Positions 19,496-57,742 of a stretch of 64,000 nt of DNA are shown here, piece by piece (within the stretch, counting starts at the first letter, position 1; each line of letters opens with the position of its first letter). Origin of the DNA: Parcubacteria group bacterium. Its GTDB lineage: Bacteria > Patescibacteriota > Minisyncoccia > Phycocordibacterales > UBA2135. The notes beneath the pieces are model-generated. The model worked only from the letters and a program-made list of their open reading frames with translations, was not told the DNA's origin and ran no database searches. Both the position numbers and the translations under genes were made by a program. The stretch covers positions 345,980 to 409,979 of the forward strand of contig JACPBB010000002.1 in assembly GCA_016180525.1 (NCBI GenBank), written 5' to 3'.

Positions 19496-19521
19496 GTGTT
19501 TGGGGTCCATTTGAATTGAAT

Positions 19522-19579
19522 CCCGACGCTCCGCTTGTGAGCGGGGGTCGGGACCCCGACCGGCTTTGCGCGTCGGGGC
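19522..19579. repeat. G+C-rich nested palindromic repeat element (REP-like family copy, inverted relative to the 16845 copy)
   Basis: its reverse complement gccccgacgcgcaaagccggtcggggtcccgacc...gcgtcggga aligns with 16845..16889. Confidence 0.65.
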
Positions 19580-43661: not shown

Positions 43662-44903
43662 ATGAACAAAGGATTTATCCCCCCACCTTCTCAGAATACC
43701 TCACAGTCTTGCTGTGGAGATGGATGGGTGTTGTACAGATCCTTTCTGAAGGGTCCAATATCTCGCGGGAAGGTGGGGGGATTTATTTCTATTTTTACGC
43801 TTCTTATTATTCTTGGCGTGGTTGGCGTTGGGGTGGTGGGCGCTGTACTTATTGTTAAAACGGGAAATGATAAAAATGACATGGCATCTATTGAAGAGGA
43901 GACAGAAATAGTGGCATCTGAAAATAAAGAGGCAACTTCGTTACCTGTTTCATCAAAGCTTGTCAAAAGCACAGAACAAGGAATTCAAGCGCCAAACACA
44001 ACTCCTTCTGTGGACACCACTCTTCTTAATTTAGAGCGCGAAATTAGTGTTTTGTTTGACGCCAAAGTAGCGATCGGGGAGGAACACTATCTTCTTATTT
44101 TAAAAAATCTTGATAACGCGGAAAAAGAGGGTGGTAATAAAGATACAGTAGCGCGACTGCGAAATATGCTTGAAACAATACATTCGTATGCATCGCTATC
44201 CGCTCCCGAGGAATCGCAAATCACAACAACAGCAGAAGAAGCTCCGATGCCCAAGGGGGTCGGAGTCCCGACCTCGCCAGAAGCGAGCGTCGGGGAAAAA
44301 ACAGAGCCGGTGTCTTGCGCAAACGACACGCGCCCGAAGCTAACCGCAGACATTACCGACTTTTCTAAAATCAGAAAAATTACGGCCCCTGGCAACGCGT
44401 CAGTTGAAGGTCCGAAAGGACACTCGTTTATCTGGACGGGTGGCGCGCGTGTTCCCATCTATGCTCCTGCGAATATTACACTTGAATCTGGCTCATATTC
44501 AAAAGATACCGAGAGTAGTCCGGCGCAGTATCTCCTCTTTTTTGTAGTACAAGAGAATTGCAACTATCGCGTTAAGTTTGACCACATAGATGAGCCGATT
44601 ACATCCATCAGAGAACAATTCTCGGCGACTCCAGCTGTCGCGGACAGTCATACTTCGGAAGTAGTAAACAAAATAAAATTTAACACCGGTGATTTAATTG
44701 GCTACACGTCTGGTACGGTCTCGGCAGGTAATTGGGACTTCGGCATGTATAATTTGAACGAAGAAGGGCCCCTGAAACGAGTTGACAATGTCTTCGGCAT
44801 ACATGGCTACTCGGTGTGCTGGGTGGATTTTTATTCCCCGGATGTAAAAAAATATCAATACAGAAATCTACTTGAAGGCACCACCCTCGTTTGTTTCTTT
44901 TAA
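43662..44903 (+). CDS. hypothetical membrane-anchored secreted protein carrying an in-frame REP-like element
   Basis: 413 aa; N-terminal TM; nt 44244..44294 is a copy of the G+C-rich palindromic repeat and encodes PKGVGVPTSPEASVGEK. Confidence 0.5.
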   Translation: MNKGFIPPPSQNTSQSCCGDGWVLYRSFLKGPISRGKVGGFISIFTLLIILGVVGVGVVGAVLIVKTGNDKNDMASIEEETEIVASENKEATSLPVSSKLVKSTEQGIQAPNTTPSVDTTLLNLEREISVLFDAKVAIGEEHYLLILKNLDNAEKEGGNKDTVARLRNMLETIHSYASLSAPEESQITTTAEEAPMPKGVGVPTSPEASVGEKTEPVSCANDTRPKLTADITDFSKIRKITAPGNASVEGPKGHSFIWTGGARVPIYAPANITLESGSYSKDTESSPAQYLLFFVVQENCNYRVKFDHIDEPITSIREQFSATPAVADSHTSEVVNKIKFNTGDLIGYTSGTVSAGNWDFGMYNLNEEGPLKRVDNVFGIHGYSVCWVDFYSPDVKKYQYRNLLEGTTLVCFF

Positions 44904-44931
44904 TGAATTTCAAATAGTGTATAATCATACT

Positions 44932-45051
44932 ATGGGAAAACGAAGCACAGCAATAGGGCTCATGAGAACATCTCGTTCTCGAAAGACAAAAAAACGTCTT
45001 GCGAAAAAACACGCAATGCTCGCGAAAAGAGCCGCGAAACGGGGCAGGTAG
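44932..45051 (+). CDS. small Lys/Arg-rich protein (39 aa), possibly a divergent bL34-like ribosomal protein
   Basis: MGKRSTAIGLMRTSRSRKTKKRLAKKHAMLAKRAAKRGR; C-terminal RLAKKHAMLAKRAAKRGR loosely resembles L34 RMATKNGRKVLARRRAKGR; TATAAT 5 nt upstream; terminator immediately downstream. Confidence 0.3.
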   Translation: MGKRSTAIGLMRTSRSRKTKKRLAKKHAMLAKRAAKRGR

Positions 45052-45086
45052 TGCAATCTTACCAGGCTCTTTTGTCATAAAAACAA

Positions 45087-45135
45087 CCCCCTCACTCTCT
45101 AAGAGTGAGGGGGTGTTTTGCCTGATTTTTTTTCT
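45087..45135. terminator. bidirectional palindromic terminator (copy A)
   Basis: ccccctcactct-cta-agagtgaggggg with A-run before and T-run after; near-identical palindrome at 48724..48750. Confidence 0.65.
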
Positions 45136-45144
45136 TTTCTATTC

Positions 45145-46530
45145 TCATACCCCCGTTCCAAATGGAAGCGAGAGTACATAGAGTCCGAAGACGGTGTAGG
45201 AAACCATGAGGAAGAGCATCGGAAGCTGTCCAAGAATGATTTGCAAACGACTTTCAAATTCCACAAGCGCGATGCGATGTGCGATATATGTCGCGAGAAT
45301 ATGTCCAAGAAGAATTGCCCCAACCATAATGTACCAGACGGTGTCAGCCCCAATAATTCCTATATTAACTTGATACGATTGCGTGCCGAATAAATCCCAA
45401 TCTCTGAAGAGTGGATCGGAGAGCATGGGAATTAAGCGTTGTCCTTCAAAAATGAGGAGGCCAAAGTAGTGCGCGAAGTGATAGACAATGGCAATTGGTA
45501 TTAGGGAATACGTGAATGTGAGGAGGAGTGAAGAAAATGAGGTGGCAGTTTTCGTGACGAGTTTCATAAGAAATATTGCAAACGCATAGAATGCGAAGAA
45601 GACAAGCGGAGAGAAAAGAAGCGTTACATGCGAGACAAGAGAATAGTTGTTGAGGAAGAGGTCGCTTGAGCGGATGAAGTTTACCCATGGCTCTGTTTCT
45701 TTACTTCCGTCAAAAACGGTGGAAGAGAGCATAAAGAGAACGAAGAACAGAATGCTTATATGTGCGGTGCGACTTTTTAAGAGATGCTCGCCGGGTGGAG
45801 TAAATTCAATTTTTTGGGGCGTAATATGAAGCGGAGCGAATTTTCCCACAAGACGGAAGAACACGCTGAAAAAGTCAGAATAGTGAAACCAGTCACGAAT
45901 TCCAAAAAGTGCCGAGCCGTAAATGGAGATAAGAGTGTAGATTACAAGTACTCCGCCAAGCACATAGGGGTTCGCACCAGCGCCGCCTGAGAGCAGCTCA
46001 AGCCAGATAAGGCTGAAAAAAAAGAAAAGCGCGGGGATATATCCGAGCCGCCCCGGATAGGTGTATCGTGGCACATGATTTTTAGGAAGTATCCACGAGG
46101 CAATTGTTTTGAATGGGTTCATATACTCCCAGAGATTTCCAAATAGAGCAGAGAGATAGGTAAACCCCAAGAGGAAGATAATCCAGAAGAGAATCGGAGC
46201 GGGGTTGAGAAAGGCATTCCCGCTTCCTAAGAAAGCGAGTGCAAGCGTAAGTGTGAGGAGTATGATACCGAGAGCTTTCAGAAATGCCGCTACGAAGCGA
46301 AGAGATGGAATGGAAAATGTCTTACTGATATATCGCGAAGTTCCAGAAAGAGCTGGGGTGCTGAATAGTCCGAGAATTGCAAATGATGCCACAAGCGCTG
46401 CTCCCGCTCCGATTGCGTAAATGTGGAAGGGAAGCGGGAGTGTAAATTGGAGTCCAAACGCGTGTGCTTCTGTTATTGTTGGCACAAGTAAAATGAGGAT
46501 TCCGGCAAGAATCTTAAGAATTTGTTTCAT
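45145..46530 (-). CDS. polytopic membrane protein with signal peptide; possible metal-uptake partner of the adjacent YcnI-like protein
   Basis: 461 aa, more than 10 TM helices; operon with cupredoxin-like and YcnI/DUF1775-like genes. Confidence 0.5.
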   Translation of the reverse strand: MKQILKILAGILILLVPTITEAHAFGLQFTLPLPFHIYAIGAGAALVASFAILGLFSTPALSGTSRYISKTFSIPSLRFVAAFLKALGIILLTLTLALAFLGSGNAFLNPAPILFWIIFLLGFTYLSALFGNLWEYMNPFKTIASWILPKNHVPRYTYPGRLGYIPALFFFFSLIWLELLSGGAGANPYVLGGVLVIYTLISIYGSALFGIRDWFHYSDFFSVFFRLVGKFAPLHITPQKIEFTPPGEHLLKSRTAHISILFFVLFMLSSTVFDGSKETEPWVNFIRSSDLFLNNYSLVSHVTLLFSPLVFFAFYAFAIFLMKLVTKTATSFSSLLLTFTYSLIPIAIVYHFAHYFGLLIFEGQRLIPMLSDPLFRDWDLFGTQSYQVNIGIIGADTVWYIMVGAILLGHILATYIAHRIALVEFESRLQIILGQLPMLFLMVSYTVFGLYVLSLPFGTGV

Positions 46531-46539
46531 GGTTTTGCA

Positions 46540-46923
46540 TTATGGCAATACTTCTAACGCGCCTATATCCGTTTTGCTTTCTTCAAGTTCAAACATGAAA
46601 CGACCGCTTGCTGAAGCTTTGAATGTAAGTATCGCGGGCACTCCTTTTTCCAAATCAACGCTTCTGTCGTAGCCGTGGAGGTGAAATTCTTCATCTTCGT
46701 CAGCAGTAACAATGATACTTACTGTTTCCCCTTGTTTTATCGTGATTGTCTCGGGACCGGAGATGATTTTTTTGTTTTCAACAACAAGAGTAAATTCTTT
46801 TGGTTGTGTCAAAATTGTTTCTGGGGGTATGGGTTGAACATTTTCTGCCTCTTTTCCTAAAAAGAGCCAGCCACTGGCAATAATGAGCATGCCTGCGAGT
46901 ACAATAATTATTTTAGTCTTCAT
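46540..46923 (-). CDS. secreted small beta-rich protein, cupredoxin-like (HxH motif)
   Basis: 127 aa with signal/anchor sequence; EFHLHGYD motif. Confidence 0.4.
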   Translation of the reverse strand: MKTKIIIVLAGMLIIASGWLFLGKEAENVQPIPPETILTQPKEFTLVVENKKIISGPETITIKQGETVSIIVTADEDEEFHLHGYDRSVDLEKGVPAILTFKASASGRFMFELEESKTDIGALEVLP

Positions 46924-46928
46924 ATTAG

Positions 46929-47582
46929 TTATTTTTTAGCTGTTTTTAATGATATTCCAAGTGCGACAACGGAGAGAACCAAAGCAAGAAGCGCTGTCAT
47001 AAATGTGTAATCAGCTTTACTTGAAGCTTCCGTAACGGGGGCGGAATAAGGCGTAGAAGACATATGGTCATCGGCAGAAGCGGATGTGTCAGCGACAACT
47101 TCCGTTGTTGAATAGGGATTTTTTACTTTGCCATCTTTTTCATCCTCATTTGGTTTCTGGGGGTCTCTATCCCATGCGACCACTTCTCCTCTTGCGTACG
47201 TTTGATACGCTTTCCAAATAAGGGTTGTATCTTCTTGCGGAGTGCGAGCGGTGAATTGGAACACATCTTTTTGCCCTGCGGGGATTGCTCCACCCGTCCA
47301 TTCTATTTCGGTAACAATTGTTTTATCACCTTCTTGTTTTGTCTTCACTTCTATATCCCAGCCTGATTTTACAAACGGCGTTACTCGCTCAAGTTTTTCT
47401 GGAATAATGAGCCGAACACCTTCGGTGGGCACGTCACGTTCAGTTGGAACACTTAAGTTAAATGTTTCATATTTTGAAGCAGGAACTTGAGATGGAGTAA
47501 CCGTTGAGTGCGCAAATACTGTTGGGGAATAAAATACAAATAATGTGACAATAAAAAATAACAATAAATAAGTTTTTTTCAT
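46929..47582 (-). CDS. YcnI-like (DUF1775) copper-binding protein with C-terminal membrane anchor
   Basis: signal peptide cleaved before HSTVTP (N-terminal His typical of YcnI/DUF1775), beta-rich domain, C-terminal TM. Confidence 0.5.
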   Translation of the reverse strand: MKKTYLLLFFIVTLFVFYSPTVFAHSTVTPSQVPASKYETFNLSVPTERDVPTEGVRLIIPEKLERVTPFVKSGWDIEVKTKQEGDKTIVTEIEWTGGAIPAGQKDVFQFTARTPQEDTTLIWKAYQTYARGEVVAWDRDPQKPNEDEKDGKVKNPYSTTEVVADTSASADDHMSSTPYSAPVTEASSKADYTFMTALLALVLSVVALGISLKTAKK

Positions 47583-47659
47583 GATTAGATATATGTTTCA
47601 CTTCTTTAAAGACACAAAGTGCTTTAAAGAATTAATAGCTAATAAAGGGAAACAAATAC

Positions 47660-48022
47660 CTATCTATATATTTTAGGATGCATAATGCCGCATCGGAGCA
47701 TTTCCCGAAAGAGATTGAATAGATTCGTTTGAACGCGAGTATTATATGAAAATATATTTTTAGCCACAAACGGCGCACAGAAAACAACATGCATTTTTTG
47801 AAGCGCGCTGAAACTTATTCTAAAACACAAAAGAAGGAACACAAAAAACAGCAACTTTTTGTTTTCATTATGAAAAAGATTATCTATTTGGAGGCCGAGA
47901 AGCATTTTCGGGGCGCCCGTATGTAGGTGGCTGTGGGGAACGAATTCATGCACTCCGAAAGATAGAAGCAGTGCGACACAAATCATAAAAACAAGCATTT
48001 TTGAAAGATTTATACTTTGCAT
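47660..48022 (-). CDS. small membrane protein, hypothetical
   Basis: start trimmed to MQSINLSKM because the ORF-track N-terminus is a read-through of the 73-bp repeat copy. Confidence 0.35.
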   Translation of the reverse strand: MQSINLSKMLVFMICVALLLSFGVHEFVPHSHLHTGAPKMLLGLQIDNLFHNENKKLLFFVFLLLCFRISFSALQKMHVVFCAPFVAKNIFSYNTRVQTNLFNLFREMLRCGIMHPKIYR

Positions 48023-48197
48023 ATTTATTACTATGAGTATACCACACTTGAGTATGTTGGTATGTTGTTTTGCCTGATTTTTTTTCTTTTCTATTCTCAT
48101 ACCCCCGTTCCAAATGGAAGCGAGAGTACATAGAGTCCGCAGGCGATATAACACTAATTTAAAAAGCGATTCCATAATAGGAACCGCTAAAAATGAA

Positions 48198-48644
48198 TTA
48201 ACTATTTAACGATAAACAAGAATTGGATTTGCGGGGATTATGTGCTGCAATGATGCCGCATATTGCATCTATAAGTTTTGGAGGGTATCTTAAATTTGGA
48301 TTTTGACGTTCTTCTTGTATTAGTGCTTGTAATTTTTCTCGAAATTCTATTGGGTCTCTGTCGTCAGTTGAAAAATCTGATGAAATACCAGTCTCAAGCG
48401 TTTCTCTGCTGCTAAGTGGGTATTGATCTGTAATTGCGTAATAGCGCACGGAAACATGATGGTGGTCAGAAGATCGGAGGAGCCAGAACGTGCCTGTACC
48501 TAGATCAACAATTCTACATACACCCTGAGTGTCTTTACAAATATGAGGCGCTGATCCTTTAAGTTCTGAATCAGATATTACCTCTCCGTTTTGGTTGAAA
48601 AAAGATAATGTTTCATACTTTGAATACGGAATAACAATGAACAT
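48198..48644 (-). CDS. hypothetical protein
   Basis: 148-aa ORF. Confidence 0.45.
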   Translation of the reverse strand: MFIVIPYSKYETLSFFNQNGEVISDSELKGSAPHICKDTQGVCRIVDLGTGTFWLLRSSDHHHVSVRYYAITDQYPLSSRETLETGISSDFSTDDRDPIEFREKLQALIQEERQNPNLRYPPKLIDAICGIIAAHNPRKSNSCLSLNS

Positions 48645-48723
48645 ATATGAACAACCCCTTCCGTTATTTTTCCTTTTTACAGGGTAATTCTTTTAATGTA
48701 TATAGTCAAGTTTTTACTAAAAC

Positions 48724-48760
48724 ACCCCCTCACTCTTTAAGAGTGAGGGGGTGTTTTGAA
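48724..48760. terminator. bidirectional palindromic terminator (copy B), downstream of ftsZ
   Basis: ccccctcactct-tta-agagtgaggggg plus T-run. Confidence 0.65.
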
Positions 48761-48764
48761 ATTT

Positions 48765-49910
48765 TTATTTATCTTTTTTTGAACGTCGCAGGAATGCGGG
48801 CACTGCGCCCCACTCCTCGTCATCAGATTCTCCCGCTGCGTCAACGGTTCGTTTTGCTCCTTCATTGACAGCGTTCATCAGCTCTTCCTTTTTATGATTT
48901 TTTTTTCCGCTGTCAGACAAAAAAGAATTGAATAATGGCTTATGATTGCTTGAATTGTCAGGGAAACCGGAGGCAATAACGGTAATTTTCACTTCTCCTT
49001 TTCCTAGTTTAGGGTCATTGATAGCGCCAAAGATAACTTTTGCGTCACCCGCGATTGATTCGGTAATAATCTTTGCCGCCTCCTGGATTTCATGCATGCC
49101 AAGGTCTGGGCCGCCGGCAATCGCAAAGAGTATGCCTTTTGCTCCGTTTACCGATATATCAAGCAGCGGAGAGTTGATAGCCATGCGTGCCGCGTGTTCC
49201 GCTCGTTTTTCTCCAGCCGCGCGTCCGACTCCCATAAGCGCGGAACCTGCTTCTGCCATAACAGCTCTGATGTCCGCAAAGTCAACATTGATGACTCCAG
49301 GCGTCGTAATTAAATCTGAAATACCTTCAACGGCCTGTCGCAATACCTCATCGCTCATCGCAAATGCGTCAAGTGCCGACATTTCTTTTTTTACAATTTG
49401 TAGTAGGCGGTCGTTCGGAATAATGATGAGCGCGTCAACTTCATTTTGAAGCTCCGAGAGTCCGTTTAACGCAATGTTCATTCGCTGTGTTCCTTCAAAG
49501 AAAAATGGTTTCGTGACAACTCCGACGGTAAGCGCTCCCGCTTCTCGCGCTGTTTTCGCAATAATCGGCGCTGCACCGGTGCCCGTGCCTCCGCCCATAC
49601 CCGCGGCAATAAAGACCATGTCCGAGCCCTTGATGGAGTCCTGAATTTCCGTGCGAGTTTCTTCGGCGGCTTTTTTGCCGACTTCAGGATTCATTCCAGC
49701 ACCCAATCCCTTTGTTAAGTTTTTTCCAAGATGGATTTTTTTAGGAGCGACTGATTTTTGAAGGTCTTGCACATCCGTGTTCATTACCATAAATTCAACG
49801 CCGCGTACTTTGGAATTGATCATGTGGTTCACGGCATTACCGCCGGCTCCTCCTACGCCGACTACATAAATACGCGCGAATGCTTCAATGCCTGGTTCAA
49901 TTTTTGCCAT
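48765..49910 (-). CDS. ftsZ: cell division GTPase FtsZ
   Basis: GVGGAGGNAVNHM tubulin signature, GGGTGTG motif. Confidence 0.9.
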   Translation of the reverse strand: MAKIEPGIEAFARIYVVGVGGAGGNAVNHMINSKVRGVEFMVMNTDVQDLQKSVAPKKIHLGKNLTKGLGAGMNPEVGKKAAEETRTEIQDSIKGSDMVFIAAGMGGGTGTGAAPIIAKTAREAGALTVGVVTKPFFFEGTQRMNIALNGLSELQNEVDALIIIPNDRLLQIVKKEMSALDAFAMSDEVLRQAVEGISDLITTPGVINVDFADIRAVMAEAGSALMGVGRAAGEKRAEHAARMAINSPLLDISVNGAKGILFAIAGGPDLGMHEIQEAAKIITESIAGDAKVIFGAINDPKLGKGEVKITVIASGFPDNSSNHKPLFNSFLSDSGKKNHKKEELMNAVNEGAKRTVDAAGESDDEEWGAVPAFLRRSKKDK

Positions 49911-50130
49911 GATATTTTAGGGTATAGGGTTTAGGGTATAGGGTTTAGAAAAACTAAAAGCTAAACACCAAACACCATGTTAACAGAGCACCAGTAAATC
50001 GACTGTTTACTCTGCATATTAATTTACTTTTAAATTACCAGAAAAAAAGACACTGACAATATTGACAAACGATACAGTATTTTTTTTAATATTCTCTTCA
50101 GAAATGAAGAAAAGTAAGGCGATGATGTTT

Positions 50131-51300
50131 TTATGGGAGAAATTGCTTGCTCCAAGAAGCAAGCGACTTCCAATAATCTTCAATGTTTCGGCCTCTATTT
50201 GTAAGATCCACTCCATATGGCTCATGAATTCCCAAAATACAGAGTCCGTACGCAACAGACCAAATGGGGTCTTTTACTTTAATCTGTGCGTTACCCGGTG
50301 TGTGAGGCACTGCTATGCGAGCGGGGAGTTTTAATGTTGCTTTTGCGAGGTCCTCTGTCGTCGCGATGCCCGAGCCTCCTCCCGCAATTACTATTCCAGC
50401 AGGCAACAGCCCGCTTCTGCCGACTTTTTTCAAATGTGCCTCCACTAATTCAAAAATGTCAGACATCCGCGCCTCAATGATTTCAGCGAGTTTTTTTTGA
50501 GAAAATCCTTCACCAGTAAGCGTTCCCATTTTTACATTTTCCGCTTCCTCGAGAGGAATTTTAAGGCCAAGGGCGATGTCATTAGTGATGTCAGTTGACC
50601 CTATGGGGAATACTTCAAGTGAAGTTGGTTTGTCATTTTCAAATACCGCAAGGGACACGGTTTCAGCTCCGATATTGACTAACACACAGCCGGCAATTCG
50701 CTGTGCTTGAGTTAATGTAACCAAACTTGCGGCGACAGGCGATGCGGCAACATTTACCACCGTGACCCCGGCTTCTTCCACCGCTTCAACAAAATCATCC
50801 AAATGTTGCGCGAGGCAGGTGATCAAAAGAACTTTTACTTCAAATTTAACACCGCGCATTCCGAGTGGTCGCCCCAAAATTTCTTTTCCATCAAGTTTGT
50901 AATGGAGCACGACTTCGTGAATCACTTTTTTATTGGTAAGATTTTCTGCTTTTTCTTTACTTGCCGCGATTGCTCGTTCAATATCAAGCGCGGTAATTTC
51001 CCCGTCAACCCTTGAGATAAGAGTGGAGCCGACGCCAATAGTTGCTCCAAGAGAAAGGCCCCCAACGGCAATAAGCGCTTGCCGTACTTTTTCCCCCGAA
51101 TCTTTTTCAGCCCGCGCAATGGCTTCTCTTACGCTCCTGGTTGCCTCATCTATTTGGGTAATATATCCATGACGCAGCCCCCGAGACTCCGCGCTTCCTA
51201 CCCCGAGCACTTTTATTCCAGCACCTTTTTTATTTCGTTCGGCAATTACCACTCGCGTGTTTCGTGTTCCTATGTCAATGCCGGTAGTAATGGTGCTCAT
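50131..51300 (-). CDS. ftsA: cell division protein FtsA (actin-like ATPase)
   Basis: 389 aa; N-terminal IGIDIGTRNTRVVIAE actin-fold phosphate-1 motif; immediately upstream of ftsZ. Confidence 0.85.
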   Translation of the reverse strand: MSTITTGIDIGTRNTRVVIAERNKKGAGIKVLGVGSAESRGLRHGYITQIDEATRSVREAIARAEKDSGEKVRQALIAVGGLSLGATIGVGSTLISRVDGEITALDIERAIAASKEKAENLTNKKVIHEVVLHYKLDGKEILGRPLGMRGVKFEVKVLLITCLAQHLDDFVEAVEEAGVTVVNVAASPVAASLVTLTQAQRIAGCVLVNIGAETVSLAVFENDKPTSLEVFPIGSTDITNDIALGLKIPLEEAENVKMGTLTGEGFSQKKLAEIIEARMSDIFELVEAHLKKVGRSGLLPAGIVIAGGGSGIATTEDLAKATLKLPARIAVPHTPGNAQIKVKDPIWSVAYGLCILGIHEPYGVDLTNRGRNIEDYWKSLASWSKQFLP

Positions 51301-51377
51301 GAAGATATACTTTCCGATAATGTGATAATCGGATTTTATTTATAGAAATAGTAAGAGGAAATGTGTGTTAAAAATTT

Positions 51378-51782
51378 TTAAATAACGACAGAAAATTTTT
51401 TTCGCACACGCGCCTCCTTATCTTCCATTGTACTATTATGGCGGTACCCCTTCAAATGAAATAAGCCATGTATAAACAGGTACAGAATCTGATTTTTAAG
51501 CATTCTTTTGTTTGTGTGTGCTTCCCAACGAGCCTCTTCAATGTCAATAAAAAGCTCACCCATATGTGTTTCAAGGGGGAAACTTAACACGTTTGCCGGA
51601 TTGTTTTTTTTACGATAGCGTTTGTTGAGATTTTTGGAAAGGGCGTTTTTGATAAATACAATACTCAAATTATACTGTTTTCCTAAAACCGTATTTTTAA
51701 TATCGGAAAACGGCAGGCGAGGAAGCCTGCCGTTTGTTTTGTTTGTAATAGAGATCGTAGAAAAGGCGTTTTTAGCCCTCAT
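51378..51782 (-). CDS. ybeY: endoribonuclease YbeY (rRNA maturation factor)
   Basis: HGLFHLKGYRH zinc-binding motif (HxxxHxxGxxH). Confidence 0.75.
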   Translation of the reverse strand: MRAKNAFSTISITNKTNGRLPRLPFSDIKNTVLGKQYNLSIVFIKNALSKNLNKRYRKKNNPANVLSFPLETHMGELFIDIEEARWEAHTNKRMLKNQILYLFIHGLFHLKGYRHNSTMEDKEARVRKKFSVVI

Positions 51783-51784
51783 AA

Positions 51785-52018
51785 TTATGATGGTATTCGG
51801 CCAAGCTTTTTTAATTTTTCTGTTTCCTTATGTTTTGCAATTCGTTTCAGCGCTCGAGCCTTTTTTTTAAATTTTGATTCTGCTCGTTCAGCAAAACGGT
51901 TTGTTCTCACAAACCGTAAAATACCGGATCCTTGCATCCGTTTGGTGAATCTGCGCACGAGTGACGCGTTTGATTCGTTTGCGTTTTTGGCGACTTCTAC
52001 GTTAACAGCTGAATTCAT
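51785..52018 (-). CDS. rpsU: 30S ribosomal protein S21
   Basis: LVRRFTKR...GIL...R...F.E...KFKKKARALKRIAKHK matches the bS21 consensus (ALRRFKR...GVL...RRR.FYEKP...KRAK). Confidence 0.6.
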   Translation of the reverse strand: MNSAVNVEVAKNANESNASLVRRFTKRMQGSGILRFVRTNRFAERAESKFKKKARALKRIAKHKETEKLKKLGRIPS

Positions 52019-52178
52019 TGTTATGGATTATATATAAAACCTTTTTATTTGCAACTAAAATTATGGCCAACATCCAAGTTATATTTGTTTCACGGGCGCA
52101 TATGTTTTTAGCCCTATCCCTACCCCATACCCCTAAAAACATATGCGCCTGTGTGGAACGATCTTTAGTCCTCTTTAG

Positions 52179-53567
52179 CTATACGTGTTTTTTAAGATAA
52201 TCTCCCAGCTTATCAATGGGTACAGTTTCTTGCGAACGGGTTTTCATGTTACGAACGATGACCGCGTTTTCGTTTGCTTCCTTTTGTCCCAGTATAATGA
52301 TGTAGGGGATTCCTATTCTCTCCGCGATACCAAGCTGGACAGAGAGCTTGTCTTTGTTTATGGAATGCATGAGGGGAATCCGCACTTTTCGAAGTGCTTC
52401 TATAACCGTGAAGCTTTTCAGTTTTGCTCCTGTGCCAATCTGTATAAAATATATTTTTGGTTTTTTAACTATTCTCGGGCGTGGCATGGAATACCCCGGC
52501 GCGGAGAGCACTCGGTCAACTCCGATTGCGGAACCAACAGCGGGAATGTCGCGGCGGCTTCCCAAAGCTCTCGCAAGATGGTCGTATCTGCCGCCCCCAC
52601 CCAAAGAAAGCATTGGTTCCGCACTCGTTTTTTCTTTTGATTCTCGTGAAGGCTTTGTTTCCGTATTCTTAGTTTCTGTATTTTCTTTCGTATTTTCTGC
52701 TGAGCTTTCTTCCTGCTCGGATACAACCTCAAAGACAGTGCGGGTGTAGTAATCAATACCTCGCACCAAGGTGTGTTTTAGAAAATAAGGAATTTGCATT
52801 ATCTCTAGATACTCCAGTACTTCTTTAAAATGCTCCCTGCAATCTTCACACAGGAACCCCATGATGTCGGGTGATTTTTCAGCAAGTTCTTTACAAGCGG
52901 CTTCTTTACAGTCAAGTAGACGAAGCGGATTTTTCTTTAAACGCATTCTGCAGTGCGCGCAGATTTTATTAATATGTTTTCTGTAATATGCCGTGAGTTC
53001 TCGTATATAATTCGGCCGACAGCGAGAATCTCCGATACTGTTTATCAATATAGTAAGGTTTTTGATTCCAACCTCTTCCAATATGAGATGCGTCAGTTTA
53101 ATGGTAAGCGCATCAATAATGGGCTCTGCCGCTCCTATGGTTTCAAATCCAAATTGAAAAAATTCCCGAGCGCGTCCTTTCTGCGGTTTTTCATGGCGGA
53201 AAAAGGGACCATAATAATAGAGCATGACCGGCTGGGGGAGCGAGTGCATGCCGTGTTCCAAATATGCCCGCATAATACCCGCAGTGCCTTCGGGACGAAG
53301 CGCAAGACGGTCTTTCCCTTTTGTTGAGAAACTATACATTTCCTTACCCACGATATCGGTTTCCAAGCCTACTCCGCTGGTGAAGACGCCTTCCTTTTCC
53401 AAAATAGGTGTTTCAATGGGCTTGAATCCGTAATAGAGCGCGATTTCCGCGGCCTTTTCAAAAAATCCCTGATATGACAAAAAATCTTCATGCAATATGT
53501 CACGCATGCCTTTTGGCGACAGAAGCGCGCCCGGCTTTTTTTCTTTTGAAGAATTTTTTTTGCTCAT
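52179..53567 (-). CDS. hisS: histidine--tRNA ligase
   Basis: class II motifs (FRHEKPQKGRAREFFQFGFE, GGGRYD), with a low-complexity insertion. Confidence 0.85.
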   Translation of the reverse strand: MSKKNSSKEKKPGALLSPKGMRDILHEDFLSYQGFFEKAAEIALYYGFKPIETPILEKEGVFTSGVGLETDIVGKEMYSFSTKGKDRLALRPEGTAGIMRAYLEHGMHSLPQPVMLYYYGPFFRHEKPQKGRAREFFQFGFETIGAAEPIIDALTIKLTHLILEEVGIKNLTILINSIGDSRCRPNYIRELTAYYRKHINKICAHCRMRLKKNPLRLLDCKEAACKELAEKSPDIMGFLCEDCREHFKEVLEYLEIMQIPYFLKHTLVRGIDYYTRTVFEVVSEQEESSAENTKENTETKNTETKPSRESKEKTSAEPMLSLGGGGRYDHLARALGSRRDIPAVGSAIGVDRVLSAPGYSMPRPRIVKKPKIYFIQIGTGAKLKSFTVIEALRKVRIPLMHSINKDKLSVQLGIAERIGIPYIIILGQKEANENAVIVRNMKTRSQETVPIDKLGDYLKKHV

Positions 53568-53570
53568 GTT

Positions 53571-54176
53571 TTATTGCACGTATGAAGCGAGTCCCGGAAA
53601 CACCGAGATATGATTGAATGGAAATAGTCGGACAAGGGCGCGGCCAACGACAAGTTCGCGGGGAAGTGCTCCCCACGAACGGGAATCAAGGCTTGCCCCG
53701 CGATTGTCTCCCATAACGAAATATTCTTTTTCCTGCAATGCAACAGTTGTTGTATCACTAAAGACAGCTGTATTATATGACTCTTCTAAAACAAATTCTT
53801 CTCTGGAAACACTGTTCTTAATGGTAACCACCCCGCGCTCTATTGATATTGTTTCTTGCGGTAGGGCAATAATTCTTTTAATAAAAAATTTTGAAGGGTC
53901 TTTTGGATATCTGAACACAATTACATCTCCACGCTCCGGTTCATGAAAGCGATATGAAAGTTGGTCTACTATTAAATAGTCTCCGTTTTCAAATGTGGGC
54001 ACCATTGATGTGCCGCTGACGATATAGGGTTGGGCGACATATACGCGAATGGGCACGACGATAATGAGCGCCAAAAACACGAACTTGGCAATTTCCAAAA
54101 CAAAAGATTTAATGGAACCTTCTTGTGTTTCATTTTTTTGAAGTTCTTCAGGCAGCATTATGCAATTGTAATACAA
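53571..54176 (-). CDS. lepB: signal peptidase I
   Basis: SGTSMVPT (Ser box), GDNRGASLDSRSWG (box E) motifs. Confidence 0.8.
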   Translation of the reverse strand: MYYNCIMLPEELQKNETQEGSIKSFVLEIAKFVFLALIIVVPIRVYVAQPYIVSGTSMVPTFENGDYLIVDQLSYRFHEPERGDVIVFRYPKDPSKFFIKRIIALPQETISIERGVVTIKNSVSREEFVLEESYNTAVFSDTTTVALQEKEYFVMGDNRGASLDSRSWGALPRELVVGRALVRLFPFNHISVFPGLASYVQ

Positions 54177-54192
54177 TTTTGTGTTTTATACA

Positions 54193-54225
54193 AAAATAAA
54201 CCCCGCGCGACTTTGGTCGCGCGGG
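54193..54225 (-). terminator. rho-independent terminator of the 54238..54654 gene
   Basis: minus strand ccccgcgcgac-caaa-gtcgcgcgggg plus tttatttttg. Confidence 0.6.
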
Positions 54226-54237
54226 GAAACGAGAGTG

Positions 54238-54654
54238 TCAGATGCCGCCTTTTGTGCCGAACAGCATCTTTTTGTTCTTTTTCTGACGTTTGTTGGCGCA
54301 CGGGACGATCCACAGTACGCCAGCGAGCGTAAGAGCAGCAATCGAAAGAGAAAACACCGTGTCTAGTGCCGAATAGCCCTTGCTGGACCAACCGTAGAAC
54401 ATGGCTAGAAGATCCATTGTCCAGAAGGCTTCGCCGACGATGATGGTGTTTGCGAAGATTCTGCCATTCGGCACGAGCATGACGAGTTCACCGCACGCGA
54501 CGATGCTCGGGGCGGCGGCAACGACAGCCATGACCGCTATCACGACGAGGTGTGGCGCGAATCCGCCAAGTGATGCGAATACCCACGCAACTATGACGGC
54601 AGCAAGAGCCGTCACGAGCGTTTGCGAAAAGTATACCAACCGTACGAGATTCAT
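54238..54654 (-). CDS. hypothetical 4-TM membrane protein in a G+C-enriched segment
   Basis: 138 aa; hydrophobic; G+C-richer than flanking genes; own G+C-rich terminator. Confidence 0.5.
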   Translation of the reverse strand: MNLVRLVYFSQTLVTALAAVIVAWVFASLGGFAPHLVVIAVMAVVAAAPSIVACGELVMLVPNGRIFANTIIVGEAFWTMDLLAMFYGWSSKGYSALDTVFSLSIAALTLAGVLWIVPCANKRQKKNKKMLFGTKGGI

Positions 54655-54755
54655 TTTCCGTACTCCCTATTCAGTTTTAACTAATTAAAACATATCATAA
54701 GACCATATCTCTGTCAAGCCCCTTACCTTGCGCCCAATGCTCTATACTTAATTAC

Positions 54756-55364
54756 ATGTCATATGTAATCGTCGGACTTGGAAATCCTGGAGTAGAATAT
54801 GAAAACACGCGGCACAATAGTGGGCGGAGCGCTGTACTTTATTTTTGGAAAAAGCAAAATTTTCCGGAATGGGAGAAAAATAAAAAATTAAACGCGCTTG
54901 TTTCAGAAGGAAAAATCAAAACCCCGCATGTAAGGGGCAAGGAAGAAAAGGTAATGCTTGTACTGCCGCAGACTTTCATGAATAAGTCAGGCACAAGCGT
55001 TGCGCCGCTTGTTAAAAGCAAAAAACAAGCAGAACGGCTTGTGGTGGTTCATGACGACCTTGATTTACCACTTGGCTCTCTCAAGATAGTTTTTAATCGC
55101 GGCTCCGGCGGGCACAAAGGGGTAGAATCGGTAAAGCGGGCAGTGAAAACGGAAGGATTTGTCCGCATCCGTATCGGTGTTTCTCCTGCAACTGCTTCCG
55201 GAAAACCAAAAAAACCGGACGGTTCACTTGTGAATGATTTTATAGTAGCCGCTTTTCGGCCCAAAGAAACGGAATTGCTTAAAAAAGTCACTAAACGCGT
55301 TGCGGATATTCTGCAAACTATCGTGGAAGAAGGAAAAGAAAGAGCGATGAATAAGTTTAATTAG
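54756..55364 (+). CDS. pth: peptidyl-tRNA hydrolase
   Basis: VIVGLGNPG...RHNSG N-terminal Pth motif. Confidence 0.85.
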   Translation: MSYVIVGLGNPGVEYENTRHNSGRSAVLYFWKKQNFPEWEKNKKLNALVSEGKIKTPHVRGKEEKVMLVLPQTFMNKSGTSVAPLVKSKKQAERLVVVHDDLDLPLGSLKIVFNRGSGGHKGVESVKRAVKTEGFVRIRIGVSPATASGKPKKPDGSLVNDFIVAAFRPKETELLKKVTKRVADILQTIVEEGKERAMNKFN

Positions 55365-55752
55365 TCACCGTCCATCAGTCACTAGCCACTGCCACCAGTC
55401 ATTAGTTGTTGTGTTGCGTATGTGTGCGTCACATTTTCTACATTGAAAGAAATATAAAAGATGTCATGAGAGAGATGGCCGCAAAAAAAGCTCGACCGAA
55501 GTCGAGCCTTTCACCAAGCGGTCTAGAGGCCAAACAGGGCGCGAAGGAACCGGAAAGGATGATTTTTTGTCCACATGAGAAACTCACGGCGAGTCATTTG
55601 TTGGTTCTTCTGCTGCATGGTGATACCTCCTGAATAGTTACTGATTGAAGTGTGGCATACTTCCATACAAAATGTCAAGAAAATATAAGCGTATTTCGTC
55701 AATGGAAAGAAATATAAGCATTGCCATGGCAACGCTTGGAATCGCGACGTTC

Positions 55753-55786
55753 GGAGGAAAATGAAAACAAGTTTTCATTTTCCTCC
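55753..55786. repeat. 34-nt perfect palindrome (16-bp arms, 2-nt centre)
   Basis: ggaggaaaatgaaaac-aa-gttttcattttcctcc. Confidence 0.8.
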
Positions 55787-55876
55787 TCGCCTCTGATTGT
55801 AAAAAGTGTCATGGGAAATGATGGCAAAGAAAAAACCACCGTTTCTTTTGGAGGGCGGTGGCCACGGCTAGGGGAT

Positions 55877-56260
55877 TCATTTGTTGGTGCGCTGTTCAAT
55901 TTCATTTAACCACGCCGTGCGTGTGGCATGTGAGCGACTTAGAAATGCAGCGCGTCTCCGGTTCTCGGAATAAGCAAGAGAGAAGGCCTCATGGTAATTT
56001 CCAAAAACTTGACCAAGAATATCATATTTCGGACAGGCAAGGTTGAGCTTGCGTATGTCAATTTTCTGGGCCCATTCAAATAGTACACTGGCATCCAGCA
56101 ATCTTGCGGCTTGTTTAACTAATACACCAACTACCCTGGGATGGTAGTACCACTCTAATCTGCTTTTCATGCCCGGTTTTTTGAGCAAATGACGGCAGCA
56201 TCTCCGTTTTTTTGGCATCGGACACTTCCTGCTGTTGGTGCGCTTCCGCAAAGATAACAT
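55877..56260 (-). CDS. hypothetical basic protein
   Basis: 127-aa ORF; Lys/Arg-rich N-terminus. Confidence 0.35.
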   Translation of the reverse strand: MLSLRKRTNSRKCPMPKKRRCCRHLLKKPGMKSRLEWYYHPRVVGVLVKQAARLLDASVLFEWAQKIDIRKLNLACPKYDILGQVFGNYHEAFSLAYSENRRRAAFLSRSHATRTAWLNEIEQRTNK

Positions 56261-56308
56261 AAGTAATATCGAAAGTCAAATTTTTACAGCGTAATCATTT
56301 TAACAAAC

Positions 56309-56345
56309 AAAAAATCATCCCGATACCCGTCGGGATGATTTTTTG
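56309..56345. terminator. hairpin terminator downstream of rpsA
   Basis: atcatcccga-taccc-gtcgggatgat flanked by A and T runs; same hairpin as 17250..17283. Confidence 0.6.
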
Positions 56346-56353
56346 TTTAATTT

Positions 56354-57742
56354 CTATTCTTTCGCCTCCGTTTTTTCTGGTTCTTTGTGGGAGAGTGTCA
56401 TTCGCTGCTCTGTTGGCTCAAAAAGGGTAATTTTGAATGAATATTTTTTCCCAAGTTCAAGCGCGTCTTTAAGCGCTTTTTCGGTACCGAACTCTGAAAT
56501 ATGATTAAGGCCGGCAACTCCTTCTTCAATAGAGACAAGCGCTCCGTGTTTGTTATGTTTAATCACGACACCATCAACAGTGTCTCCTTTTTTGTATTTT
56601 TTACCCGCGGCCACCCACGGATTTTCTTTAAGTACTTTTATGGAGAGAGAAATTTTGTCTCCTTTTACTTCAATAACCTGCGCCTTCACTTTTTCCCCGA
56701 CTTTAAACAACATGCGCGGATTCTCAACGAGACCCCAATCCATTTCTGAAATATGCACGAGTCCTTCAAGCCCCTCTTCAACTTTCACAAAAGCACCGAA
56801 ATCAACGATACCGGTAATCTCTCCTTCCACAATATCGCCCACTTTGTATTTTTCAACGATTTCACCTTTGCCCTGCTGTTCTGGTCCTTTTTCTGAAAAA
56901 ATGAGCTTCCCTTCTTTTGGCGAGGCAGAGATAATGATGACCTGGAGATTTTTCCCCACAAGTTTTTGAAGTTCAATAAGAATTTTATCCTTATCACCGT
57001 CCAGTACGCGTGGATAATGCTCCGTTTTGAGTTGTGATGCCGGCACAAATCCGGGAATGCCTTGCCACTCTAAAATGAGTCCGCCTTTGTTTGCTTCTTT
57101 AACAGGAAGTTCTAACAATGTTTTGTTACGGATTGCTTCTTCGGCACTGTTCCAGATAAGCGCCTGGCGTGCCTCTTTGAGCGATAGTTCAACATAGCCG
57201 TCTTCGTTTTCCCGCTCCACAACCTTTGCGGTAATATTATCGCCGACATTTATTTTTTTAATAATATCGCTCGCATTTCTAAACTCCCTCCCATAAATGA
57301 TTCCCGTGCCGAACGGGCCAAGGTCAATAAACAATTTTGATTTATCAATTTCTATAACGGGACCGAGAACCAAATCTCCCTCTTCCGGGGGATTTTTAGT
57401 GTTCTCCATAATTTTAACCATTGGATGGCTGGCCATGGGCCGAGCGTTTTGTAAGGGAACATACGCCGCTCTTGATTCAGCGTTCGCAGATTCAAATTTT
57501 TTATCAGATTTTTTTGTGGAGGTGGATACGGGAGGAGAGACAACGGCCTCTTCCGCGACAAGAGATGCCTTTGAAGTTTCTTTAGGTTGCTCTATTTTTT
57601 TTCCGACGCTCGCTTCTGGCGAGATCGGGACCCCGACCCCTTTGGGCGTCGGAGCCTCTTTTACGATAATTTTTTTTGTTTCTTCTTTTCCTTCCTCTTT
57701 TTTAGACTTTTTAAGTTTAAATAATGATTTAATTAACGCCAT
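56354..57742 (-). CDS. rpsA: 30S ribosomal protein S1 (four S1 domains) with N-terminal low-complexity extension carrying an in-frame REP-like element
   Basis: repeated S1 OB-fold units (GxVxGxV...G.F...) across about 350 aa; nt 57603..57651 is a repeat copy encoding PKGVGVPISPEASVGKK. Confidence 0.75.
   Translation of the reverse strand: MALIKSLFKLKKSKKEEGKEETKKIIVKEAPTPKGVGVPISPEASVGKKIEQPKETSKASLVAEEAVVSPPVSTSTKKSDKKFESANAESRAAYVPLQNARPMASHPMVKIMENTKNPPEEGDLVLGPVIEIDKSKLFIDLGPFGTGIIYGREFRNASDIIKKINVGDNITAKVVERENEDGYVELSLKEARQALIWNSAEEAIRNKTLLELPVKEANKGGLILEWQGIPGFVPASQLKTEHYPRVLDGDKDKILIELQKLVGKNLQVIIISASPKEGKLIFSEKGPEQQGKGEIVEKYKVGDIVEGEITGIVDFGAFVKVEEGLEGLVHISEMDWGLVENPRMLFKVGEKVKAQVIEVKGDKISLSIKVLKENPWVAAGKKYKKGDTVDGVVIKHNKHGALVSIEEGVAGLNHISEFGTEKALKDALELGKKYSFKITLFEPTEQRMTLSHKEPEKTEAKE

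Follow-up and report, generated by a model that had tools for sequence, protein, structure and literature searches.

The nearly identical stretches that are read in frame within an envelope protein gene and within the gene for ribosomal protein S1 of this Parcubacteria group bacterium are probably copies of a mobile palindromic element that inserted without breaking either reading frame and is translated with its hosts. The best explanation for the pair, copies D and E, is that both are recent sister copies of one small mobile element, G+C-rich and built as a double hairpin; its translation we infer from the conservation of frame. The window, which is the whole stretch of DNA analysed (64,000 nt), contains them as follows.

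43662..44903, + strand: host gene 1, 413-aa membrane-anchored protein (exact database match P0121, "hypothetical protein HYT93_04070")
44236..44307, + strand: copy D, double hairpin (core 44242-44295), in frame, codons ~192-215 of the 413-aa gene
56354..57742, − strand: host gene 2, ribosomal protein S1, 462 aa (PF00575 S1, E = 1.1e-39)
57589..57660, − strand: copy E, double hairpin (core 57601-57654), in frame, codons ~28-51 of the S1 gene, in its N-terminal extension

A preliminary description of this DNA had reported a palindromic repeat, about 90% identical over roughly 65 nt, lying in frame inside two genes. Both long open reading frames were confirmed, and 64 of 72 nt proved identical between copies D and E (89%), which makes them the longest inverted repeat of the window; the sequence flanking the 72 nt could not be aligned between the copies. 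The word palindromic is accurate in that each copy consists of two adjacent hairpins (RNA MFE, −38.3 kcal/mol for D and −34.1 kcal/mol for E, the hairpin of E including one G-U pair; z = −5.2 and −4.2, respectively), with no equally stable fold among the shuffles (0/200). The cores are 69 to 72% G+C, against 42.5% for the window. Searching with the 38-nt core (≤3 mismatches) gave two matches in the window versus none in 100 dinucleotide shuffles, and an exact match to the 38-mer was not found in the JGI metagenomes. A third unrelated gene, from another metagenome (P0175/L161), carries a copy of the D/E subtype with a DNA core about 90% identical and a decaying hairpin 1, bringing the copies found of this subtype to three.

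At the insert, the in-frame translations of the two host genes read ...APMPKGVGVPTSPEASVGEKTEP... and ...APTPKGVGVPISPEASVGKKIEQP..., and the encoded peptide is a Pro/Gly/Val-rich coil (APxPKGVGVPxSPEASVG); if the element is translated, the predicted tryptic peptides are GVGVPTSPEASVGEK and GVGVPISPEASVGK. The host proteins had been described as otherwise unrelated, and BLASTP of the 413-aa protein against S1 indeed matched the insert segment only (22/38 identities, E = 7e-08), with no other significant similarity between them. A profile search with the peptide returned no protein family (six matches, three of them unrelated repeats).

The 413-aa protein has a TM helix at its N-terminus, followed by a helical bundle and, beyond a linker, by a conserved beta-rich C-terminal domain to which no Pfam family corresponds. 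Its 50 retrieved homologues, some of them fused to M23 peptidase or peptidoglycan-binding domains, share the conserved helical domain and the C-terminal domain; the copy D segment is present in none of the 50, and its site is a gap-rich, hypervariable linker, which the AlphaFold model (AF2) renders as a low-pLDDT coil between two confident domains. Because the same product, inserts included, was recovered from assemblies of three independent sequencing runs (L121-L123, DNA 100% identical), the insert is not an assembly artefact. In S1, the N-terminal extension is typical of the lineage and its extreme N-terminus is conserved: the closest orthologues (P0001-P0009) keep MALIKSLFK(L)KKSKK, which precedes the element and shares the reading frame of the S1 core, and the extension is therefore genuine. 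The copy E segment was absent from all 120 S1 homologues retrieved, its site again being a gap-rich, hypervariable linker. The placement in low-complexity linkers given in the preliminary description was thus borne out in both alignments, and the comparison of orthologues that it had proposed as a check found the segment in neither set. An exact empty site was also sought among the nearest orthologues, and none was definable for D or E because these relatives are too diverged in the linkers: the nearest homologue of the 413-aa protein is only about 50% identical, and the nearest S1 orthologue (80% amino acid identity) has an unalignable linker.

The same double hairpin recurs over many CPR classes and beyond CPR, with at least 119 matches in species-representative genomes, overwhelmingly those of CPR/Patescibacteria. 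The family consensus, (A)G|CYCCGAC-loop-GTCGGRG TCCCGAC-loop-GTCGGGA, describes a unit of 44 to 56 nt with near-invariant 7-bp stems and variable loops of 4 to 30 nt. In the window, the family pattern had five matches versus none in 30 shuffles, and four copies of the mobile type lie within these 64 kb, of which D and E differ in loop subfamily from the tRNA-linked copies B and C. Stem positions covaried among the matches listed (C-G 68, T-A 35, other 9; Fisher test, P = 5e-20), and total element length was a multiple of three in 61/112 of them (P = 3e-06). The insertion point lies after (T)AG: the left flank of the matches listed favoured A at −2 (78/111) and G at −1 (73/111), with no right-flank signal found. 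Between about 20 and 36 copies in other genomes (among the matches listed) lie in frame within housekeeping genes, in either orientation, the hosts including PolA, GyrB (twice), IleRS, RNase J, aldolase (twice), CarB, Def, RpoA, EF-G, UvrD and MnmA. Reading through in the same frame was seen in 20 coding copies and a different frame in 8 (P = 4e-05 against an expectation of 1/3, among the matches listed), and the 20 divide evenly into 10 forward and 10 reverse. Since the element also occupies noncoding sites, in both orientations, and is read in other frames to give different peptides, a shared protein domain is excluded; the preference of the preliminary description for mobile insertion is upheld by these copies and by an identity that stops at the hairpin ends. 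No description of the element was found in Rfam or in the searchable literature.

One further match in the window is not an insertion.

4826..4869, − strand: look-alike, helices P13 and P14 of RNase P RNA, within the RNase P RNA gene (4530-5045, − strand)

Its canonical L13 and L14 loop motifs mark it as native P13/P14, and the RNase P RNA of another lineage (L116) has the same stems, with P13 formed by GUCCCGAC..GUCGGGAC and P14 by CUCCGAC..GUCGGAG in both. These stems and their junction match those of the family exactly in the two lineages. Three intrinsic terminators of the window use the same stem heptamer.

Copies B and C stand at tRNA genes, the former as part of a cassette with the order 5' fragment of the local tRNA, hairpins, GIY-YIG nuclease of about 86 aa and intact tRNA.

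16816..16844, + strand: second copy of the 19-nt leader of tRNA-Phe with tRNA positions 1-10 (97% identical to 17150-17179)
16845..16888, + strand: copy B, double hairpin, after position 10 (GTAG|) of the duplicated tRNA-Phe 5' fragment, at the 5' end of the cassette
16907..17164, + strand: 85-aa GIY-YIG nuclease ORF, between copy B and tRNA-Phe (PF01541, E = 3.7e-15)
17169..17241, + strand: intact tRNA-Phe(gaa), downstream of the cassette
19424..19495, − strand: intact tRNA-Arg(ccg), downstream of copy C
19521..19578, − strand: copy C, double hairpin, within a diverged 5' fragment resembling a tRNA (..CCCCCGTAG|); tRNA-Arg follows 25 nt downstream

The duplicated tRNA-Phe fragment includes 25 nt that match exactly up to tRNA position 10, and the right flank of copy B resumes with CTCAG, tRNA positions 11 to 15. 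The ORF, which has an exact database match (P0177, "GIY-YIG nuclease family protein") and encodes no DNA-binding domain, stops 5 nt before tRNA-Phe. Copy C represents a short form of the cassette that lacks the ORF, and only 2 of the 9 tRNAs of the window are occupied by the element. Elsewhere, a nuclease ORF lies directly downstream of the hairpins at five genome loci, and when GIY-YIG homologues were fetched regardless of context, all seven had hairpins upstream and a tRNA downstream. In all, 36 homologues of the nuclease (85 to 120 aa) were found. The ORF always abuts a tRNA gene, and across genomes the tRNAs are of at least nine identities (Phe, Val, Lys, Ala, His, Asn, Thr, Ile and others). 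Where tRNA junctions are exact they fall in the D-arm, at position 10|11 or 15|16, with no duplicated bases found. The presumed target is still present in the intact tRNA downstream, and a simple model of homing or target duplication does not by itself yield a tRNA fragment split by hairpins. The neighbourhoods of the copies examined yielded no transposase.

The best reading of these results is that the element is a translated, selfish palindromic insert resembling those of Rickettsia, with the tRNA-linked nuclease cassette as its likely driver. Each copy would have inserted where a real gene encodes a disordered linker that tolerates additions; the host genes stay open because the inserted sequence is divisible by three in length and its GC-rich stems lack stop codons, and the element would then simply be translated as a Pro/Gly/Val-rich coil. 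The stand-alone GIY-YIG nuclease may cut at tRNA D-arm-like ...AG| sites or at extruded hairpins, repair synthesis or gene conversion may copy the hairpin end into the breaks and so generate ORF-less solo copies like D and E, and selection may leave only those copies that keep the frame in tolerant loops. Taken alone, the step in which the nuclease drives the spread is a tentative proposal, its link to the solo copies being associative. Equally provisional, and somewhat short of an even chance, is the wider proposal that an undescribed class of mobile elements, widespread in CPR and in some other small-genome lineages, has the double hairpin as its structural end; its minimal, domain-only GIY-YIG cassette would target the tRNA D-arm, rebuild the tRNA behind it and shed ORF-less hairpin pairs that colonise essential protein-coding genes in frame, with stems that may share ancestry with P13/P14. 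The place of the element at the head of this cassette, beside tRNA genes, suggests how it spreads.

Among the other explanations, the one we consider unlikely but weightiest holds that the double hairpin is a host-beneficial cis element under selection, for instance a CPR-specific site of protein binding or processing or a structural signal in DNA, which was recruited into the S1 and envelope protein genes. The near invariance of the 7-bp stems over phylum-level lineages, with compensatory C-G/T-A changes, would suit such a function, as would the constant placement in pre-tRNA leaders, the two occurrences in GyrB and the use of the same stems in native P13/P14 and in the terminators; the orthologous aldolase genes L062 and L119 keep the element at the same site, and this retention, with the conservation of the stems across lineages, could mean functional hairpins instead. 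The coding copies, however, are equally frequent in both orientations (10/10), are confined to hypervariable linkers and are absent from nearly all orthologues; copies can decay, as hairpin 1 of L161 and the G-U pair of copy E indicate; no Rfam family matches; and a mechanism of insertion would still be needed. A derivation from RNase P P13/P14, or a tie to it, is less probable still, whether as a mobile fragment of the ribozyme gene or as P13/P14 mimics in pre-tRNA leaders and mRNAs. The exact match of stems and junction, with canonical loops, speaks for it, as does the linkage of the family to the genes for tRNAs, the substrates of RNase P, but RNase P genes account for only 1 of 121 scan matches listed, the cassettes have the two hairpins in the opposite order relative to transcription, and the terminators also use the shared heptamer, which could thus be a favoured stem rich in G+C.

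We regard it as highly improbable that the element is removed at the RNA level, as an intron-like or endonuclease-processed insert, and that the peptide is never made. The element does lie in the setting of a tRNA D-arm, a place that introns can also occupy in archaea. The rRNA genes of CPR, moreover, are rich in insertions, some of them non-intron and encoding GIY-YIG proteins and many short and uncharacterised (PMC11270868). Against removal, excision in silico restored a tRNA in 0/126, Rfam yielded no intron or ribozyme match, and the coding copies listed keep the frame (20/28) with lengths enriched for multiples of three. Barely credible, finally, and effectively refuted is the notion that the shared stretch reflects a protein-level module, a convergent low-complexity linker or a one-off gene conversion, with no mobile element involved. 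Both sites are P/K/E-rich low-complexity linkers and the window holds only two such copies, but the nucleotide identity ends at the hairpin boundaries, the same DNA gives different peptides elsewhere, and a third unrelated host from another sample carries it while the peptide profile finds no family.

Read as a translated mobile insert, the element most resembles the Rickettsia palindromic elements (RPEs; Ogata et al. 2000, 2002), which PMC10969869 presents as in-frame inserts in Rickettsia genes. Both are palindromic repeats found in many copies, in frame in unrelated and often essential genes of a reduced-genome bacterium, and RPEs too are translated as an extra peptide at fold-compatible sites and have copies outside genes. 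No enzyme is known to mobilise RPEs. Although it works like an RPE, the CPR element is not a member of that group, from which length and hosts set it apart: RPEs measure about 100 to 150 bp and are confined to Rickettsia, whereas the CPR element, at 44 to 56 nt (72 nt shared by D and E), pairs two hairpins in tandem, their 7-bp stems near-invariant and their loops free, and is linked to the GIY-YIG/tRNA cassette.

Double-hairpin elements of fungal mitochondria were reportedly described by Paquin et al. in 2000, a study that PMC4478555 cites. These and the mitochondrial GC clusters are, like the CPR element, G+C-rich hairpins in an A+T-richer genome that show compensatory changes and lack a classical transposase, and the transposition mechanism of the clusters is likewise not known. 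In the yeast mitochondrial GC42 hairpin element, the stems are conserved, the loops are variable and the target is AG (PMC4478555), but GC42 duplicates its AG target, and no duplication is seen in the CPR element. The mitochondrial elements are organellar, are reported mostly from intergenic regions, introns or variable regions of rRNA, and lack the tRNA 5'-fragment architecture; with no sequence relationship to the CPR element, whose hosts are bacterial, they are analogues only.

The REP/BIME-RAYT systems share short, GC-rich, imperfect and often paired palindromes and repeats that flank a dedicated nuclease gene. REPs have a purine-rich tetranucleotide, GTAG, 5' of the hairpin; in the CPR family A at −2 and G at −1 are enriched, and the GTAG of copies B and C represents tRNA positions 7 to 10. 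REPs are extragenic, whereas D, E and the other in-frame copies are intragenic; the cassette gene encodes a GIY-YIG protein (PF01541) and not a Y1 (IS200/IS605-like) transposase, and no RAYT gene was seen adjoining any copy. Among endonucleases, the closest parallel is SegB of T4-like phages, a free-standing GIY-YIG enzyme whose recognition of a conserved motif in tRNA genes is of relaxed specificity (PMC2330249). Its gene lies among or next to tRNA genes, and break repair drives the inheritance of the gene and its flanks; the CPR cassette similarly encodes a GIY-YIG catalytic domain, lies at tRNA genes and varies in occupancy between genomes. SegB, however, is much larger than the 85-aa domain-only ORF and targets the T-arm, while the CPR protein is tied to D-arm junctions and the double hairpin; the CPR cassette, whose nuclease activity is predicted, belongs to cellular genomes and leaves behind a tRNA 5' fragment that is split.

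With classical MITEs, the element shares a small, noncoding, structured form, a location within genes and frame-keeping lengths, but it is a double hairpin without target duplication and without TIRs distinct from its stems, which are its ends. Our analysis went beyond the preliminary description in the CPR-wide family within essential genes, in the tRNA-linked GIY-YIG cassette and in a second in-frame insert of the 413-aa gene, an unrelated MITE of 102 nt (43679-43780) with 12-bp TIRs and an ATTTAT duplication.

The preliminary description held that one palindromic repeat lies in frame within two unrelated genes, and the position and similarity of the two stretches, copies D and E of the double hairpin (stems CYCCGAC/GTCGGRG, then TCCCGAC/GTCGGGA), were confirmed: 64 of 72 nucleotides were identical, and the flanking sequences were unrelated outside these 72 nt.

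Copies of the double hairpin and a second insert in the window
44236-44307 (+), copy D, in the gene of a 413-aa protein
57589-57660 (-), copy E, in the gene of ribosomal protein S1
At tRNA-Phe (copy B) and tRNA-Arg (copy C), split-tRNA/hairpin plan
43679-43780 (+), MITE insert, 102 nt, codons ~6-41 of the 413-aa gene, unrelated to copy D

The D/E pair is the longest inverted repeat of the window (72 nt, 89%). Its 38-nt core was found at just two window sites with up to 3 mismatches (0 in 100 shuffles), and the exact 38-mer had no match in JGI metagenomes. The copies are indeed palindromic, each folding as two adjacent hairpins (-38.3 and -34.1 kcal/mol, z -5.2 and -4.2), with cores of 69-72% G+C versus 42.5% for the window, and their loops form a subfamily distinct from that of copies B and C. 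Both lie within long open reading frames, keep the frame and encode the peptides quoted earlier; the predicted tryptic peptides that span them are GVGVPTSPEASVGEK and GVGVPISPEASVGK. BLASTP aligned this segment alone between the two host proteins, which agrees with the claim that they share no other similarity. Because the 413-aa product was assembled identically in three independent sequencing runs, the repeats are not an assembly artefact.

We then compared the host proteins with their homologues. The source organism is a Parcubacteria/Paceibacterota (CPR) bacterium, and the segment was absent from all 120 S1 homologues; in the 413-aa protein it was found in this genome alone, its 50 homologues lacking it. 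The N-terminal extension of S1 is not an artefact of ORF calling: MALIKSLFK(L)KKSKK, upstream of copy E and in the same frame as the S1 core, is conserved in the nearest orthologues, and the alignment showed that the linker after this extreme N terminus varies in length and composition. No exact empty site could be defined, since the linker of the closest S1 orthologue is too diverged to align at the DNA level. L116, from a distantly related Parcubacteria genome, was discarded as a near relative in which to compare presence and absence of the segment, with just 67 nt aligning to the window. The 413-aa protein exactly matches a hypothetical protein already on deposit. Its TM anchor, helical domain and conserved C-terminal domain recur in its 50 homologues, and copy D sits, as had been proposed, in a linker, here a hypervariable Ser/Pro one between the helical and C-terminal domains. 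The AlphaFold model (mean pLDDT 75.5) shows the segment as coil, with 10-residue blocks averaging 47-61 over residues 181-220, between a helical bundle (blocks 121-180, pLDDT 83-98) and a beta-rich domain (>90).

Two side observations concern these genes. The beta-rich C-terminal domain of the 413-aa protein (44320-44903; pLDDT >90) contains Cys, Trp and Gly residues at invariant positions and matched no Pfam family; occasional fusion of homologues to Peptidase_M23 or PG_binding_1 suggests a cell-wall role. The exact 462-aa S1 product (56354-57742(-)) is absent from the protein collection, where the best S1 match has ≤81% identity, and the neighbouring 413-aa and GIY-YIG products from the same contig are on record; the S1 gene may have been skipped or called a pseudogene in the depositors' annotation.

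Searching a profile of the D and E peptides through 1.84 billion representative proteins gave 6 matches in total. One further genuine carrier was P0175, a winged-helix-like protein of 241 aa with APTPKGVGVPTSPEASVGKE within a Lys/Glu-rich tail; P0172, P0173, P0174 and P0176 were rejected as unrelated repeats. The DNA encoding P0175 (L161), from a different metagenome, matched D and E at ~90% identity across the ~56-nt hairpin core alone, and its hairpin 1 had already acquired a mismatch; the extra AAAAAAYAGAGC tail is common to D and E only. Because identity was limited to this core, sequence comparison identifies the hairpin pair as the unit that moves. Adjoining this third host on the 1.2-kb contig (L161 15-467) is a gene for a T5orf172/MUG113 protein of the GIY-YIG superfamily.

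Next, we built a family pattern from the conserved parts (CCGAY N3-30 GTCGGRGTCCCGAY N3-30 GTCGG). It matched the window five times, never matched shuffled sequences even with mismatches allowed, and matched at least 119 stretches of species-representative genomes. Among the matches listed, lineages were overwhelmingly CPR (Saccharibacteria, Paceibacteria, Nomura-, Kaiser-, Doudna-, Berkelbacteria and others), with Omnitrophota and other MAGs contributing a few; about 11 were chance matches in genomes of >60% G+C. The stems of those listed were near-invariant yet covarying (C-G 68, T-A 35, other 9, p 5e-20), and their loops ranged from 4 to 30 nt. Across all contexts among these matches, the left flank carried A at -2 in 78/111 and G at -1 in 73/111, and the right flank gave no comparable signal. 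Copies B, C and D and the MITE insert had no match in Rfam at gathering or permissive thresholds, and no prior description of the family in CPR/Patescibacteria was found in the searchable literature, the nearest being a study of rRNA insertions (PMC11270868). Carriage by phages was rejected: the 11 IMG/VR matches were chance matches on GC-rich contigs, without hairpin symmetry.

Coding copies recur in these genomes. Among the matches listed, about 36 from CPR lay in frames open for 40 codons or more to either side, and in 20 of them both flanks share one frame for at least 80 codons each. From their translations, the hosts were identified as core genes (PolA, GyrB, IleRS, RNase J, class II aldolase, CarB, peptide deformylase, RpoA, EF-G, UvrD and MnmA), with Pfam confirmation for deformylase, aldolase, RpoA and EF-G. 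The RpoA copy is in the NTD-CTD linker. One GyrB site is occupied in two genomes in opposite orientation (L013 and L023, one Nomurabacteria and one Saccharibacteria) and one aldolase site in two genomes with differing loops (L062 and L119), which could reflect repeated insertion where a site is permissive, an inversion, or retention over a long time. The encoded peptides resemble those of the window, for example APTPKGVGVPTASVGKK in the deformylase of L070, and reverse copies encode VPT..VGTPT..VG because the element is palindromic.

Such copies might instead be removed as introns at the RNA level or act as RNA on the sense strand. Among the matches listed, however, continuation in the same frame was seen in 20/28, versus 1/3 expected were frame irrelevant (p 4e-05), and the same-frame copies were oriented 10:10, which speaks against an RNA-level intron as well as a sense-strand RNA function. 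Because of this same-frame excess and balanced orientation, the comparison favours translation through a DNA-level insert. The interpretation first offered for D and E, a mobile palindromic element in coding sequence, was rated as supported.

The noncoding copies revealed a second context. In 23 of the matches listed, a same-strand tRNA lay 25-290 nt downstream, and the hairpins of these tRNA-linked copies stood within a partial duplicate of the 5' end of that very tRNA. The hairpin junction fell exactly after tRNA position 10 (GTAG/C) in about 12 cases and after 15/16 (CAG/T) in 4; to the right, the D-arm resumes for 5-11 nt, ahead of the native leader and an intact tRNA, and no duplicated bases were found at these junctions. 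A tRNA intron was rejected, as in silico excision with 49 boundary combinations restored 0/126 tRNAs (ARAGORN, validated beforehand). The spacer of copy B (258 nt) is an 85-aa ORF (16907..17164) with a GIY-YIG catalytic domain (E 3.7e-15) that stops 5 nt before tRNA-Phe, and the order hairpins, GIY-YIG, tRNA was repeated in five genome loci. We also fetched seven nuclease homologues on protein identity alone: a split tRNA fragment with hairpins lay upstream in 7/7, and tRNA sequence began 0-15 nt past the stop codon in 7/7, six of the downstream tRNAs being called by ARAGORN and the seventh contig ending inside a tRNA-like 5' end. Some cassette copies have variant stems (AGCCGAC/GTCGGCT).

In an Omnitrophota MAG (L004, ~2150-2400), at least 2 units of tRNA-Thr positions 1-15, double hairpin, and TTGGTAGA plus leader stand in tandem upstream of an intact tRNA-Thr; given this array, the split-tRNA/hairpin unit is able to amplify locally. 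Separately, two tRNA-Ser genes that share an anticodon (cga) are found ~800 nt apart in the window, at 41825-41909 and 42638-42725 (-).

The 413-aa gene carries a further insert. Directly after MNKGF, its product has ~35 extra residues absent from all homologues, and deleting the MITE insert restores MNKGFISIF..., as in those homologues. The insert has perfect 12-bp terminal inverted repeats (CCCCCCACCTTC), direct ATTTAT on both flanks and a fold z of -4.4. The same termini retrieved 28 copies in 26 groundwater-type metagenome contigs, mostly 99 nt long and mostly flanked by ATTTAT/ATAAAT, several of them inside long ORFs; length was a multiple of three in 22/29, window copy included (p 3e-06). 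This family, independent of the double hairpin, shows that these genomes habitually carry small palindromic elements in frame.

These results show that the double hairpin is a discrete DNA unit recently copied between unrelated sites, that it is tolerated in frame within disordered loops, and that it is consistently coupled, physically, to a tRNA-adjacent GIY-YIG gene. We hypothesize a nuclease-driven mechanism, in which the GIY-YIG nuclease would make breaks after AG at sites resembling the tRNA D-arm, or act on extruded hairpins; repair would then carry the hairpin end over into the break, and only copies that preserve the frame would survive selection. To our knowledge, selfish palindromes that colonize essential genes in frame have until now been seen mainly as a Rickettsia peculiarity, and we know of no established route of movement for Rickettsia palindromic elements (RPEs) or mitochondrial hairpin elements. 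Occurrence across CPR, in genes for GyrB, PolA, EF-G, RpoA, S1, deformylase and others, would make such colonization general to reduced genomes, and the tRNA-linked mini GIY-YIG nuclease, as a candidate driver at hand, would give a testable route of movement. The inserts enlarge and diversify CPR proteins, affecting orthology calls and structure prediction, and split tRNA fragments can mislead tRNA or gene annotation.

The double hairpin works like the RPE (PMC10969869) but differs in size, host and architecture and is thus RPE-like without being an RPE. It is similar in structure to mitochondrial double-hairpin elements and GC clusters (PMC4478555), and its gene linkage recalls REP-RAYT, with a GIY-YIG nuclease as partner in place of the Y1 nuclease. 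The cassette is also like free-standing Seg-type homing endonucleases at tRNA genes; SegB of T4 recognizes, with relaxed specificity, a motif conserved in tRNA genes (PMC2330249), and some GIY-YIG nucleases cut branched DNA (PMC10287932). In CPR rRNA genes, GIY-YIG proteins occur in non-intron insertions and many short insertions are uncharacterised (PMC11270868); these insertions may belong to the double-hairpin family, which may account for part of the uncharacterised short ones.

Copy A, a look-alike within the RNase P RNA gene, aligned to helices P13/P14 (4826-4869). The idea it prompted, that all matches are RNase P genes, was dismissed, as a P4 motif lay nearby in 1/121 listed matches. 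Like copy A, the RNase P of L116 (~6078-6125) has exactly the family's stem sequences and junction at P13/P14, in an RNA of normal size with canonical loops (L13 GUUAGAG, L14 GCAAGAG); copy A is therefore a native P13/P14 ribozyme structure and was rejected as an insertion. The stem match may reflect borrowing by the mobile family, or a favoured GC-rich heptamer may have evolved by convergence. The RNase P RNA gene itself (4530-5045(-)) measures 516 nt versus a 367-position model, with a ~150-nt insertion near the 3' end (about 4592-4740, between model positions 335 and 336) that is missing from the 386-nt RNase P of L116. Three terminator-like hairpins with T runs (4501-4518, 17257-17274 and 56318-56335) share YCCCGAY/RTCGGGR heptamer stems with the element and may be exapted half-elements or simply reflect a favoured stem; the hairpins at 17241-17283 and 56304-56351 match each other at 83-91% identity across 41-43 nt.

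Other repeats were noted in the window. The 38-nt inverted repeats at 9351-9388 and 11253-11290 (97% complementary, with a small palindrome within each) were rejected as IS ends, as they enclose lepA (EF4; 9394..11193) and no transposase. An 85-nt direct repeat (95% identical) and a 40-nt perfect-stem hairpin (AAACACCCCCTCACTCT..AGAGTGAGGGGGTGTTTT) are both present in two copies, at 45081-45198 versus 48066-48150 and 48719-48758, the copies lying ~3-3.6 kb apart at minus-strand ORF ends. Three independent Logan contigs (L121-L123) all stop at 45143, within the repeat at 45081-45198.
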